NCBI GenBank assembly: GCA_951406725.2 | Contig: OX597820.1 | Location: forward strand, 2,108,001 to 2,172,000 | DNA: 64,000 nucleotides | Source of the DNA: Octopus vulgaris | Lineage: Eukaryota | Direction of reading: 5' to 3' | Shown here: one piece after another, positions 5,667 through 63,339 of the stretch | How the letters are laid out: each line of letters opens with the position of its first letter | How positions within the stretch are numbered: the first letter of the stretch is position 1 | Notes under the pieces: model-generated | Database searches by the model: none | Told to the model about the DNA's origin: nothing | The model's input: the letters and a program-made list of their open reading frames with translations, nothing else | Made by a program: the position numbers and the translations under genes

Positions 5667-5911
5667 CAGCTGGCTATACGACACGATCTGTGTCCTTATA
5701 TTTTCGAACAAGGGAATCTAGCACCCCCACTCAGCTCAAAACAATATCTGTGTATCGTGATTTCCAGGTTATTTCCCTTCATCAGCACAGAATAATTGTT
5801 CGGCTAGAGGTGGCGCTGCCAAATTCCCGTTCGAAATATACAGTTTTCAAAGTGACAATTAGTCTCTTGTTCAAGAATATAAGGATATAGATCGTGTCGT
5901 ATAACCAGCTG
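5667..5911 (-). mobile_element. Inverted-repeat module enclosing a hammerhead-like fold (Penelope-like remnant?)
   Basis: About 49-bp imperfect IR at 5667-5716 and 5863-5911. Confidence 0.6.
5747..5791 (-). ncRNA. Candidate type I hammerhead ribozyme
   Basis: Minus strand: TCTGTG CTGATGA AGG-gaaataa-CCT g GAAA TC-ac-GA TA CACAGA; one extra G after stem II. Confidence 0.6.
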
Positions 5912-5974
5912 TGTGTATATATGTATATATATATATGTGTGTAAACATGTGTATATCTTTCTAGTTGGAATTTA

Positions 5975-6110
5975 CAAAAAAAAAAAAGACGAGTGTGTAA
6001 ACAACAAACAGATGTATTAGTTTAATGCTCGAAAAGGTGAGAAAGTCTTTTACGTTTCGAGTCTACGCTCTTCGACAGAAAGGAACACGAGGAAAAAAGC
6101 AGAGACAGAA
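5975..6110 (-). mobile_element. Penelope-LTR-like short repeat with degenerate hammerhead motif
   Basis: Minus strand CTTT CTGTCGAA GAGC-gtag-ACTC GAAACGTAAAAG; related copies at 31540-31630, 51950-52125 and 52340-52460. Confidence 0.5.
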
Positions 6111-6114
6111 AAAT

Positions 6115-6730
6115 GTGTGTGTGTGTGTGTGTGTGTGTGTGTATGCATGTGTGCATGTATGTATGTATGTATGTATGTATGTATGTATGTATGCATGCAT
6201 GTATGGTTGGATGGATAGACGTATGTATGGCTGCATGTATGTATGCATGTATGCATATATAGATGGATGTATGTATGCATACATACATGCATGTATGTAT
6301 ACATGTATGTATGCATACATGCATGCATGCATGTATGTATACATATATGTGTACATGTATTTATGCATGCATGCATGTATGCATGTACGTATGTATGTAT
6401 GTATGTGTGTGTCATTATTCAGTTTTATTTCAAGATTTCTTACCAACAGAGAAAGAACCGGTTTCTAACCCAGATCCAAGGCTCCTTCTTTGGAATTTCA
6501 ACATCAGCAACAGGGTATTTTTGTATGTATGTATGTATGTATGTATGTATGTATGTAGGTAGGTAGGTAGGTCGGAAGGTAGGTAGGTAGGTAGGTAGGT
6601 AGGTAGGTAGGTAGATAGGTAGGTAGGTAGGTAGGTAGGTAGGTAGGTAGGTAGGTAGGTAGGTATACATGTACGTAGGTATGTATGTATCTATCTATCT
6701 ATGTGTGTGTATGTATTTATGTATGTATGT
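6115..6730. repeat. Compound microsatellite (TG)n/(TGTA)n/(TAGG)n
   Basis: Direct reading; explains the ORFs called here. Confidence 0.95.
6411..6522 (-). mobile_element. About 110-bp repeat embedded in (TGTA)n, probable LINE 3' end
   Basis: Second copy at 14834-14944 lies next to an R4-like RT fragment. Confidence 0.55.
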
Positions 6731-59680: not shown

Positions 59681-59981
59681 ATGTATGTGTGTGTGTGTGT
59701 GTATGTGTCTATGCATGTATATATGTGAATATATATGTGTACATATTACATGTACATCTATATATATATATATATTGATTGATTGATTCTAGTTTCAGCT
59801 TATGAGCTGTGTCCATGCTGGGGCACCGCCATTGATATATATATATATATATATATATATATATATATAGGTCCCGGGTTGATTCTTAACCACAGTAAAT
59901 AAGGTACTCAATACATAGAGAGTAAAATTAATTTATTATATAGAAGGATAGAAGAACTGTTCATTCAAGAGAAATCTTCAG

Positions 59982-60034
59982 GAAGAGCTCTGAAGATTTC
60001 TCTGAATGAAACAGTTCTAGTCCTGTAGCTCTTC
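59982..60034 (+). ncRNA. Candidate variant hammerhead
   Basis: GAAGAGC t CTGAAGA tTTC-tct-GAAt GAAACAG-ttctagtc-CTGTA GCTCTTC; stem II weak. Confidence 0.45.
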
Positions 60035-60922
60035 TATATAATAAATTAATATATATATATATATATATATATATATATATATATATATATATATATATAT
60101 ATATATATACATCTACACATATACATGTATACATATACATCTATATGTATAGAAATAAATGTGTACATATACAGCTATACACACATACATACACACACAT
60201 AGGTGTAGGTGTGGCTGTGTGGTAACAAACTTCGTTCCAAAACACGTGGTCCTGGGTTTAAATTTAAATTTAAAATAATAAGGGTGAGAAATTGAATATT
60301 AATTTGATTAATATGAATTGAAAACCAGTGGTGTAGCATATAAGACCATAGCGGATCTTCTTCTAGCAAAATGGATGTCCACTGTTAATGGTTTATCCCT
60401 CTTATATTATAGTTTGACTTTAATAGTTTCAGTATTAAAGTGAAAGTATCTGGCATTACAATAGAGAGATTTTTTGTTTCACTTTTAACACGTAATACTG
60501 AAATAGTGGAGAAGATGTGATATTGCTGTGGGCTCACCCTAGGCAAGAAGTTTTTTTGCCCATGACACTACATGGACCCTAAGTAAGGCATGTGTAAAAT
60601 TTGAATGAAATTGATTGTGTAGTTCTCAAGTTTTAGGGATTCACACAGACAGACAGACACACATTCTCAGTTTTATATATAGAGATATTCCTTATATATA
60701 TATATATATATATATATATATATATATATATATATATATATGTATGTATGTATGTATATATATATATATATAGCATAAAGGTGTCAGAGCTTGTTTATAC
60801 GTGGTTGTAGATATTTAAGAAAGAAAAATATGTAAAAACGCACAGGAAGTTTGTATAATAAAAATTCCAAGATAAGACATGGGGGCGCCAGTTTTGTTAA
60901 CAAAAATGGCGCCCCATGACTT

Positions 60923-60970
60923 AACTTGGAAGTTTGATAAGCGTCAGACGCGAAACCGGTACTCCCAGTT
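60923..60970 (+). ncRNA. Minimal hammerhead with U3:A8 core variant
   Basis: AACTTGGAAG t TTGATAA GCGT-cag-ACGC GAAAC-cg-GTA CTCCCAGTT. Confidence 0.6.
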
Positions 60971-63339
60971 TATTATATAATGTTGTAATACAACTATTTG
61001 TTCCATTATGATCTTAATATTAGCATAAAGTTTATTATACAAACCTCCTGTGCATTTTTACATATTTTTCTTTGTTAAACACACACACACACACACACAC
61101 ACACACACACACACACACACATACATATAAATACATACGTATATGTATGTATGTATGTATGTATGTATGTATGTATGTATGTATGTATGTATGTATGTAT
61201 GTATGTATGTATGTATGTCATTTATCTTTCCTTGTTTACTTGTTTCAGTCACTTTTCACAGTAGCCTTGCACCACCTTGAAGAATATTTAGTCGATTCTA
61301 TCGATATATTTTTGCCGGACTGCTAATTCACGGGGACGTAAGCACACCAACATCTGTCGTCAAGCGGCAATGGGAGACAAACACAAACACACACACACAC
61401 ACACACACACACACACACACACACACACACACACACACACACACACACACACACACACTTATATATATTATAGCTAGTGCTGCCTCGAGTCCTTGAATTC
61501 TAGGACTCATAGATCTTGTTACCCATTGTCCATTGCAAAAAAGTGACTGAAATCATAACATTCCCCTTGGACGGGGCCAATCCATCGAAGGGTTTATTCA
61601 TTTCCGGTTGTGTGGACTAAAACAACGTGAACTGGATTGTTTTGCTGAAGAACGCAACGTACCGACCGGTCCGCAAATCGAAACCGCCACGTTGCGATCA
61701 TAAGTGAAACATTCCTAACCAAGAGCCGCACACCTCCACAGGTCACAATAAATAAGCCTCCTCTTCTTCATTTCCACTTATGACGACTATCACGGTATCA
61801 CGTGATCGACCAGCTTATCGGATGATGTTATACATTGCTGGTCACAATGCGCTTTGCATTTTTAGCTTTTGAACGATGCCATCTCGGAGTTAAATGATTT
61901 GGTACCGCTACTTGGACACAGACGGTTTGGCACGACTGGCTGGACATTCAGCCTGTTTTGGTGAAGGTAGTTTTGAGCACTGGAGGCAAGTGCATACACG
62001 TGTGTGTAGAAGTATACACATACAGAGAGAGTGAAAGAGTGAGAGAGAAAATCATTACAATTTATTAATTAAACACGACTGACATAGACAGTTAACCTCT
62101 CTACATACTTAAAGAGAAATACACTCAGACAGAGAGAGAGAGAGAGAGAGAGAGAGAACGAGAGAACAATAAAATGCCTGATGTCAAATAAGTCAGCGTC
62201 GAATCAGAGACACCAAACAAGTGGCGTCAAAACCGCTATGGCCAAACGGCTCTGTCTAAAATGTTTTATACGCAAATTTGATAGCTTTGCAAAGACCAAG
62301 AACCATCTTTTTGTTTATCAGCTACGATATCTAACAGTACGTCCACGCCATCACGTTATTCGATTCTAAATATCTCGACAAATACAGTTGATTGAAATAT
62401 CTGGACGTTCACTAATTTTAACAGACATTCTTGTATCTTGCTGATGTCCGTTATCGCTATTTTATCATGAAATGCAATTCCATCTTGAATAATATACGAC
62501 AATTTTGTTGATTCCATTGATAATTTCCCAGTAATCTCACTGCCGCCTGCAGACATCAATGTTCGCAAGTGAAATGTTCCTGCTCTGTAAAATAACCAGC
62601 AATAATTTATTCCTTCCCCCATTGATAACATTTTTGCGTCATAAATTAAGTAATAGCACAAAATTTAGCTACATCGAAATATTGCTTATGTATTATGCCT
62701 TATTAGCATGGATTTATTTGCGTTTCTCAGAGTAACATTGCAGCTTGCTTCTTTTTCCTTTTTACCTTGTAGATGCCAATTCCTCAATCAGTTATGGCCA
62801 TTCTTACCCGAATGACTACGCATAACGTTTCCATTTTCTTACAGGAAACTAGGATTCCGTGACTCGTTATGAGAAAAGACAAAATGGCGGTGAATAGATA
62901 GAGCCATTAGCAAATCAGAGAAAAATGCTTCGCAGCAGTTCTTCTGGCATTTTTCTTTTCTGAGTTCAAATACCGCAAAGGTTAACTGTGCCTCCCATCC
63001 CTTCGGGGTCGATACGATATATAGAAAAAGAACAATAAGCATAACAAAAAAAAGGGACGAAGGGAAAGACGCGGGGGGAGGGGTGCTTTTAGTCACAAGC
63101 GTGTTTGGGGATTATTTCAGGATTATGTGTTAACGTGTGTGTGTGTGTGTGTGTGTGTGTGTGTGTGTGTGTGTGTGTGTGTGTGTGTGTATGTGGGGGG
63201 GGGGGAAGGAAGGAGGCTGAAAGTTTTGTGGCCTGATACATTTTATTGTCTTTTGTGTAACCATTTGTATAGGATTGGGGTTAATACATAAGCACATCGT
63301 ACATACTTATACACACACACACAGACGGAAATATTTATG

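Follow-up and report, generated by a model that had tools for sequence, protein, structure and literature searches.

Hammerhead-bearing foldback modules of Octopus vulgaris as probable truncated ends of Penelope-like elements

Introduction

Four short non-coding modules lie in a 64,000-nucleotide stretch of the Octopus vulgaris genome (contig OX597820.1 of GCA_951406725.2, positions 2,108,001 to 2,172,000; hereafter the window), and each combines a hammerhead-like fold with an inverted copy of part of itself. What kind of element left them there? An earlier note, made from the sequence alone, proposed ribozyme-bearing mini-elements without open reading frames (ORFs), related to Penelope-like elements (PLEs) or retrozymes, in which an antisense arm could sequester the ribozyme. 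We consider it probable that the modules are old, 5′-truncated 3′ ends of several endonuclease-bearing PLE families, that is, pieces of pseudo-LTRs (pLTRs) whose inverted arm was likely added at insertion. Each module likely retains the hammerhead-like motif of its own PLE family.

Results

Layout of the modules

Inverted repeats were sought by self-BLAST of the repeat-masked window. An upstream inverted copy was found in all four modules, as the earlier note had described. The repeats lie at 5667-5715/5863-5911 in module 1 (5667-5911; 88% over 49 nt), 54687-54966 in module 2 (54687-55074; 83%), 59929-60048 in module 3 (59926-60050; 80%) and 60815-60862/61031-61078 in module 4 (60814-61079; 94%), where an inner repeat spans 60858-60938 (85%). 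In every case the inverted copy is 5′-truncated and stands head to head with the direct copy. Comparison of the four modules with each other gave no pairwise match of at least 22 bits. No direct (tandem) repeat of any module was found within the window, and the self-BLAST gave no inverted arm for two further folds at 11442 and 17685.

In module 1, the 3′ part of the direct copy (5667..5715, minus strand) pairs with the inverted arm (5863..5911, plus strand), which adjoins a TG/TA microsatellite at 5912. A type I hammerhead-like fold (5747..5791, minus strand; core 5785-5779) bears an A-G mismatch at its stem II base, and its cut is predicted after 5753. Folding places it at the tip of a long hairpin (5697..5843, minus strand), in which stem I is extended by about 55 pairs; the hairpin contains 44 Watson-Crick and 4 G-U pairs, 0 A-C mismatches, 4 transversion mismatches and 10 gap columns.

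Module 2 consists of an inverted arm (54687..54822, minus strand), the counterpart of 54833-54966, and a direct copy (54823..55074, plus strand), which contig comparison identified as a fragment of a multi-copy, 3′-biased family. Its type I hammerhead (54915..54997, plus strand) has its core at 54919-54925, GAAA at 54981 and a predicted cut after 54993, and stem I can be extended via 54901-54914/55002-55017. The module had been taken to end at 54997; the family in fact spans 54823-55074 and runs past both ends. At the 3′ end the arms differ in length by a one-sided extension of 108 nt.

In module 3, the inverted arm (59928..59981, minus strand) starts at the ribozyme core, and the direct copy (59982..60049, plus strand) carries a decayed Hydra-type hammerhead at 59982-60034, identified by shuffle score and comparison with the Hydra-clade table. 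In this motif, the stem II base is U-U and stem III is ACAG/CUGU. The direct copy stops in (TA)n, 22 nt past the predicted cut. A one-sided extension of 58 nt (59870..59927), which is possibly a PLE tail, separates the inverted arm from a (TA)n run.

The layout proposed for module 4 needed correction: arm alignment resolved it as one foldback centred at 60897/8. The inverted arm (60814..60897, minus strand) has lost about 100 nt internally, the ribozyme core among them, and the arm likewise overlaps stem I on its 5′ strand. The direct copy (60898..61078, plus strand) ends at a (CA)n run and contains a hammerhead-like fold of the U3-A8 type at 60923-60970.

The best-preserved hammerhead lies outside the modules at 17685..17735 (minus strand). 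It has a 5-bp stem I, an 8-bp stem II and a palindromic stem III, and is 113 nt from a microsatellite. A PLE C-terminus was suspected upstream of it, in a 65-aa frame at 17760-17954; the sole match of this frame was a repetitive protein, and it was judged spurious. The fold at 11442..11565 (plus strand) is weak and decayed, with a stem II region of 94 nt.

Hammerhead motifs compared with chance

A strict type I descriptor matched three times in the window. In shuffled sequence the mean was 0.025, and at least three matches occurred in 0 of 200 shuffles. The motifs are commoner than in shuffled sequence; the opposite outcome was among those that the earlier note had named as refuting its reading. 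Two of the matches are the motifs at 54915-54997 (+) and 17735-17685 (−); the third lies inside a MITE-like foldback and was judged spurious. A match at 11913-11983 was rejected because it has an A-rich pseudo-core and falls within a MITE-like foldback. The motifs at 5791-5747 (−) and 11442-11565 (+) required one deviation from the descriptor, while those at 59982-60034 and 60923-60970 required at least two and were missed by all four descriptors.

A second scoring scheme, drawn up after the candidates were known, was applied to 300 shuffles, and the best match per shuffle was compared. The scores of the candidates at 17730, 5785 and 54919 were equalled or exceeded in 0 shuffles each, that at 59990 in 1, that at 60934 in 4 and that at 11447 in 126. 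By this post hoc score, five of the six folds exceed the shuffle level, with an expectation of at most 0.013 per shuffled window. A hammerhead had been claimed for every module. As PLE-type motifs, those of modules 1 and 2 are strong, and those of modules 3 and 4 are decayed. The two extra folds divide similarly into a strong one at 17685 and a weak one at 11442. Folded on their own, the six motifs gave weak z-scores (+0.10 to −2.34).

The Rfam search that the earlier note had recommended gave it no support. No hammerhead family appeared among the best 150 of 494 matches in the whole window, and none matched at E values up to 10 in focused scans of 54820-55100, 17600-17850 and 5660-5911, which took in modules 1 and 2 and the 17685 fold. 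The best 150 Rfam matches were mostly microRNA models on microsatellites. Exact-pattern scanning of metagenome contigs gave 0 matches for the module 2 motif and 0 for the 17685 motif. A looser pattern gave four matches in viral contigs, estimated to be within the chance range.

For four of the six motifs a simple repeat follows within 125 nt downstream, compared with a background of 21% (binomial ~0.02). Four of the six also lie inside short foldbacks, which make up 6.8% of the unmasked sequence (P = 3e-4, a partly circular value).

The modules might instead be MITE-like or random foldback DNA in which hammerhead shapes are chance or incidental features. Twelve short foldback loci were found in the window, and eight lack a convincing hammerhead, including two of a MITE-like family with a common centre; the Rfam results and the 11442 fold, at chance level on one score, also point in this direction. 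We nevertheless regard such an origin as very unlikely, given the excess of motifs over shuffles, the agreement of motif details with PLE tables and the differing centres among copies of the module 2 family. No target-site duplication (TSD) was found at any of the four modules, which speaks against MITEs and counts against PLE ends as well.

The module 2 family

Comparison with other copies and organisms was made for the module 2 family. It is multi-copy in four organisms, with 222, 417, 163 and 375 contigs on the stretch (neighbouring repeat included). All of these contigs are DNA; the sequencing runs listed for 53720-55320 included no RNA set, which has no bearing on expression. In organism E the flanks of module 2 were not covered, and accordingly no empty site was seen. 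Summed depth over the single-copy flank, a rough measure, climbs 3′-ward from ~15x to 65x in X3 and from 39x to 190x in X4. The majority letters of the family contigs at 54932 and 54980 preserve stem II pairing, and that at 54938 mends a mismatch in the stem II extension.

The inversion of module 2 was found at the orthologous site of organisms B and D. Its fold-back centre is not common to the family copies. A non-inverted common sequence continues upstream of 54823 in 5, 9 and 6 contigs in three runs. Among the 15 listed of 28 joints, three can be read as head-to-head junctions elsewhere (54739/54850, 54752/54988 and 54955/55024), each resting on one contig. The joints 54687/54987, 54687/55017 and 54744/54959 were set aside as family copies placed on the wrong arm. 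Because other copies are non-inverted upstream or fold back elsewhere, the inversion was likely created separately with every insertion. For module 2, the multi-copy family, the 3′-rising depth and the copy-specific fold-back points are direct observations, as are the inverted repeats and the excess of motifs over shuffles for the window. In module 3, and in a single further copy from the module 2 family, the fold-back point was seen at the 5′ edge of the ribozyme.

The inverted arm and the ribozyme

The earlier note had suggested that the antisense arm could sequester the co-transcribed ribozyme in modules 2 and 3. Thermodynamic prediction agrees: with the arm present, the probability of stem I fell from 0.43 to 0.00 and that of stem II from 0.64 to 0.00 in module 2, and that of stem I from 0.999 to 0.00 in module 3. 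This result, together with the presence of the module 2 inversion in organisms B and D, would fit an arm selected as an antisense switch that silences the co-transcribed ribozyme. We consider such a switch extremely improbable. In module 2 the arm belongs to the insertion and is not a family trait, and in module 1 it leaves the ribozyme untouched (stem I probability 0.965 with or without it). Arm mismatches over the four modules comprise 9 G-U and 11 A-C, showing no bias to RNA pairing, as under neutral DNA drift, and arm likeness is just 80-88% in modules 1-3. In the literature, moreover, a PLE hammerhead required protein for in vitro cutting and was dispensable for insertion. The arm is likely no ribozyme switch but a side effect that arose at insertion.

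Coding context

No PLE reverse transcriptase (RT) or GIY-YIG Pfam domain was found in the 264 window ORFs of at least 55 aa, nor did either domain turn up in 77 short ORFs from the surroundings of the modules. The modules are not autonomous PLE copies. The window contains two RVT_1 matches far from the modules. One is jockey-like by the name of its source, and we take the other, from its motifs, to be LINE-type. The LINE RT of the window showed 83% identity to a protein whose label, cut short, is '[Octop'.

Discussion

Motif style, head-to-head geometry, 3′ bias and the copy-specific points of inversion give good support to the PLE connection drawn by the earlier note. We infer descent from ORF-bearing PLEs, the steps of insertion and any cleavage. 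A PLE protein would nick AT-rich or microsatellite DNA, and reverse transcription would begin near the 3′ end of the element and halt early, often close to the ribozyme. Another short copy of that end would then be joined head to head, and the insertion would afterwards decay neutrally. Against PLE ends we count the negative results for PLE domains in the ORFs and for hammerheads in the Rfam scans, the departure of the 11442 fold and of modules 3 and 4 from the core consensus, and the 3′ extensions of 108 nt (module 2) and 58 nt (module 3) compared with the 30-40-nt tail of the literature.

Some or all of the families may be truly ORF-less and non-autonomous, as solo retrozyme-like pLTR derivatives moved in trans by PLE proteins, with the same inverted-arm signature. 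Truncated ends of coding PLEs look no different from such elements. No remnant of a PLE ORF lies close to any motif, pLTR sequences are enough in cis for mobilisation in trans (PMC3846280), and animal retrozymes, often monomeric, have been proposed as pLTR derivatives. The module 1 ribozyme, topping a 147-nt rod with its 4 G-U and 0 A-C, also resembles self-paired retrozyme RNAs. Nevertheless, we judge this origin unlikely. The tandem units expected of retrozymes are lacking in the window self-comparison, and none of the 15 listed of 28 joints of the module 2 family runs back. That family overruns the window copy at both ends and rises in depth 3′-ward, as truncated longer elements do, and the motifs are of PLE type rather than of the canonical retrozyme type. 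It is quite doubtful that octopus harbours several ORF-less, non-tandem PLE parasites, solo retrozyme-like RNAs of which one would be a 150-nt rod tipped by its hammerhead, that are inserted by the PLE machinery with a newly made inverted arm and whose fold-backs cluster at the ribozyme 5′ edge; there, the ribozyme would mark either where the copied RNA starts or a template-jump site.

Read as truncated PLE ends, the modules are ordinary debris of a PLE-rich genome. In Octopus vulgaris, 190 PLE families together account for 6.83% of the genome. Such remnants are at risk of being misfiled as MITEs or hairpin RNAs. Numerous tiny insertions of this kind also provide an inexpensive record of the points at which PLE reverse transcription begins, ends and folds back. 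The modules would gain weight if a family were ORF-less yet mobile, or if fold-backs clustered at the ribozyme genome-wide.

Comparison with known systems

The modules resemble animal non-LTR retrozymes (Cervera and de la Peña 2020, PMC7229834; Li et al., bioRxiv 10.64898/2026.07.22.740005) in being short and ORF-less with a type I hammerhead; in those elements, too, PLE dependence has been proposed and monomers are common. Retrozymes are, however, defined by head-to-tail tandem units (150-450 bp, with a ribozyme in each), canonical ribozymes in which loops 1 and 2 make contact, and expression as self-cleaved linear and circular RNAs, and no tandem was seen here.

One entry of the Hydra-clade PLE table (PMC8557442 File S2, section 11) is Hydra-1 of Octopus bimaculoides. 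Although none of the six motifs equals Hydra-1_oBim, and clade assignment would require an ORF, the modules share with this clade the U-U stem II base, stem III of ACAG/CUGU or ACAA/UUGU (modules 3 and 2, respectively), a ribozyme ~30-120 nt from the 3′ end and (TA)n targets, above all in module 3.

Minimal PLE hammerheads have a long stem II, a short stem I, a palindromic stem III and a U3-A8 variant (PMC4209133), as the motifs here do. The motifs depart from them in the stem II insertions of 55 nt (module 2) and 94 nt (11442), the extension of stem I by 55 pairs in module 1, and an extra base before C3 or one missing after the cut site in modules 3 and 4. Where Cervera and de la Peña (2014) met hammerheads singly or on opposite strands, they took them for truncated PLEs; the dual opposite-strand motifs lay 100-700 bp apart (PMC4209133).

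The closest parallel is with PLE insertions themselves. In Fig. 2 of Craig (2021), an inverted 5′-truncated copy adjoins the 5′ end, and a tail may be present on one side (PMC8557442); Arkhipova (2013) described inverted pLTRs in head-to-head orientation, along with palindromic junctions and deletions at microhomologies (PMC3846280). Unlike those insertions, the modules comprise just 70-250-nt ends with no ORF seen, no TSD found and one-sided extensions exceeding 30-40 nt. Five short window motifs had no match in the supplement of Craig (2021), where line breaks could conceal matches. Like those insertions, the modules combine a truncated copy with an inverted truncated copy, carry a hammerhead in a terminal repeat, end beside microsatellites and bear internal deletions. 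The architecture is already known, and the families appear to be undescribed.

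Fold-back repeats in the window

Comparison of the repeat-masked window with itself (simple repeats mask 10,976 of its 64,000 bases, as in microsatellite-rich animal DNA) recovered all four inverted repeats proposed in the earlier note: module 1 (5667-5715/5863-5911), module 2 (54687-54966), module 3 (59929-60048), and module 4 (60815-61078). Each pairs a direct copy, carrying a hammerhead-like motif, with an upstream reverse-complement copy, the inverted arm. Module 4 is a single foldback centred at 60897/8, and its inverted arm lacks approximately 100 nt including the ribozyme core. 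The modules had been said to share no obvious sequence, and no match of at least 22 bits was detected between any two of them. No TSD was found at the modules. Of the 12 loci with short foldbacks in the window, these modules make up four, and no convincing hammerhead is present in the other eight.

Other palindromic sequences were also observed. A foldback element of approximately 250 bp, present in two copies (11705-11952 and 25134-25397; 87% alike) with a common centre and adjoining TA, is one that we take to be mariner-MITE-like; it was amplified as a unit, in contrast to module 2. A 249-bp foldback (10642-10890; 84%) lies immediately upstream of a frame on the minus strand (10047-10463), which presumably resembles a restriction-like LINE endonuclease and has no Pfam match; a LINE that underwent 5′ inversion could account for this foldback. 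Hammerheads are also lacking from the small palindromic inserts at 37779-37872 (within a TA-rich tract), 26691-26830, and 18325-18380, which could be MITEs or the ends of ribozyme-less Penelope-like elements (PLEs) such as Naiads. The element at 49045-49493 has 33-bp perfect terminal inverted repeats, and its internal direct repeat (approximately 85 nt apart) has two minus-strand occurrences of the first hammerhead core word, neither accompanied by stems.

Hammerhead-like folds

A strict type I descriptor gave three matches in the window (54915-54997 in module 2, 17735-17685, and a spurious one) compared with 0.025 per shuffled sequence, and none of 200 shuffles reached three. The folds of module 1 and 11442 required one deviation from this descriptor, and none of the four descriptors used detected the folds of modules 3 and 4. 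We also ranked the folds against 300 shuffles using a graded score, which was post hoc and devised with the candidates in view. The scores at 17730 (15.5), 5785 in module 1 (12.0), and 54919 in module 2 (12.0) were reached by no shuffle, that at 59990 in module 3 (10.5) by one, and that at 60934 in module 4 (9.5) by four. Thus, five of the six folds proposed earlier outranked nearly all shuffles, whereas the 11442 fold, scored at 11447, was within chance (126 of 300). The excess of hammerhead motifs over shuffled sequence is real. A simple repeat was present within 125 nt downstream of four of the six motifs, compared with a background of 21%. Rfam did not recognise a hammerhead at the three loci scanned singly (module 1, module 2, and the 17685 fold), and the folding z-scores of the motifs were weak. 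Several motif copies are decayed, and any self-cleavage is a prediction. A weak seventh candidate, a U3-A8 minimal hammerhead-like fold without an inverted arm, was observed at 57500-57590 (+); its score at 57512 was reached by eight of 300 shuffles.

Other copies of the module 2 family

For the module 2 family only, contigs of four runs from four organisms were matched to 54200-55320 at 80% likeness. Contig depth, which is no measure of copy number here, was single-copy in the left flank, 1-4 times that level over 54770-54807, 15-39 times at 54846-54883, and 65-190 times near 55000-55073, and fell at 55074. Many contigs began matching at 54823-54827, and upstream of this point 5, 9, and 6 of them in three of the runs carried on in a shared stretch that is not inverted; past 55074, each run had 13-35 contigs that went on with other letters common to them. 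Because contigs run on beyond both ends and depth rises toward the 3′ side, the copy in the window is a fragment of a longer, 3′-biased family. The module end placed at 54997 in the earlier note was too short, as family matches reach 55074 and beyond. Directly after module 2, a second multi-copy repeat (55094-55320) shows opposite-strand joints in its other copies.

The fold-back centre of module 2 was crossed only by the three orthologous records (9, 17, and 25) among the 32 longest listed. Apparent head-to-head junctions at other centres numbered three among the 15 listed of 28 joints, with one contig each; in one of these, the inverted arm ended one base short of stem I, at the position corresponding to 54914. 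The majority letters at 54932 and 54980 preserve stem II pairing, and that at 54938 mends the stem II extension. No core variants were found among the 40 best-supported variant rows (261 more rows lie beyond these).

Predicted effect of the inverted arm on the ribozyme

The arm had been suggested to sequester the ribozyme in modules 2 and 3. Folding predicted full masking, as addition of the arm lowered the stem I and stem II probabilities of module 2 from 0.43 and 0.64 to 0, and the stem I probability of module 3 from 0.999 to 0; the predicted fold of module 1 was unaffected. However, no sign of RNA-pairing bias was observed: arm mismatches read on the ribozyme strand of modules 1-4 together comprised nine G-U and 11 A-C, the ratio expected from neutral DNA drift. 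Since the mismatches fit neutral drift and the arm of module 2 is no family trait among other copies, masking is most plausibly a side effect. In module 1 (5697-5843, minus strand), the ribozyme tops a rod of approximately 55 pairs, an inner stem I extension that the first reading missed. Its mismatches were four G-U and no A-C (1 in 16), a weak hint of RNA-level pairing intrinsic to the element.

Probable origin of the modules

Published PLE insertions consist of a 5′-truncated copy adjoining an inverted 5′-truncated copy, with a tail on one side and a bias toward microsatellites (PMC8557442); their head-to-head junctions are palindromic, and microhomology deletions occur (PMC3846280). In vitro, a Poseidon protein nicks AT-rich DNA and starts to reverse-transcribe RNA from two internal sites; cleavage by its ribozyme requires the protein, and insertion proceeds without the ribozyme (PMC11167929). 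We infer that each module is probably a PLE-type insertion of this published pattern, reduced to its last 70-250 nt, which would have decayed after insertion. PLEs of 190 families occupy 6.83% of the O. vulgaris assembly and show an expansion at a distance of approximately 0.2 (PMC13282606); a 64-kb stretch is therefore expected to contain several unrelated remnants.

A search for PLE ORFs found none in 341 frames scanned within the window, so the families may instead be ORF-less derivatives mobilised in trans. Animal retrozymes are proposed to be derivatives of pseudo-LTRs, many as monomers (bioRxiv 10.64898/2026.07.22.740005), but tandems and circular RNA are their defining features (PMC7229834), and no tandem units were found at the modules. 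Decayed 5′-truncated PLE ends are our preferred reading. Coding remnants in the window included a Tc1-type transposase (36349-37232, +; Pfam HTH_Tnp_Tc3_2 and DDE_3) and two LINE RTs (43397-44802 and 14915-15286, both −; RVT_1); across half its length, 43846-44802 is 83% identical to a protein with the incomplete label '[Octop'.

Comparison with known PLE hammerheads

The fold-back hammerhead architecture is already described. No description of these particular families was found in the literature searched, a negative that applies to papers and does not extend to Repbase, Dfam, or the repeat library of O. vulgaris. Craig et al. 2021 (PMC8557442) is the only publication found that joins hammerhead, octopus, and Penelope. 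For PLE hammerheads, Cervera and de la Pena 2014 (PMC4209133) give a stem II of 7-8 bp, a stem I of 4-5 bp, a stem III that is palindromic, and a variant with U3-A8, traits displayed here by the 17685 fold and by modules 2 and 4. Dual motifs on opposite strands, 100-700 bp apart, and mostly solo motifs are related there to truncated PLEs. In File S2 of PMC8557442, elements of the Hydra clade, among them one from Octopus bimaculoides, have (TA)n targets and a ribozyme close to the 3′ end; stem II of these ribozymes has a U-U at its base, and stem III is ACAG/CUGU or ACAA/UUGU. None of the motifs in the window is identical to the Octopus motif listed there. Module 3 has the U-U and the ACAG/CUGU stem III of the Hydra clade and ends in (TA)n 22 nt past the predicted cut, and module 2 shares the ACAA/UUGU form of stem III with this clade.
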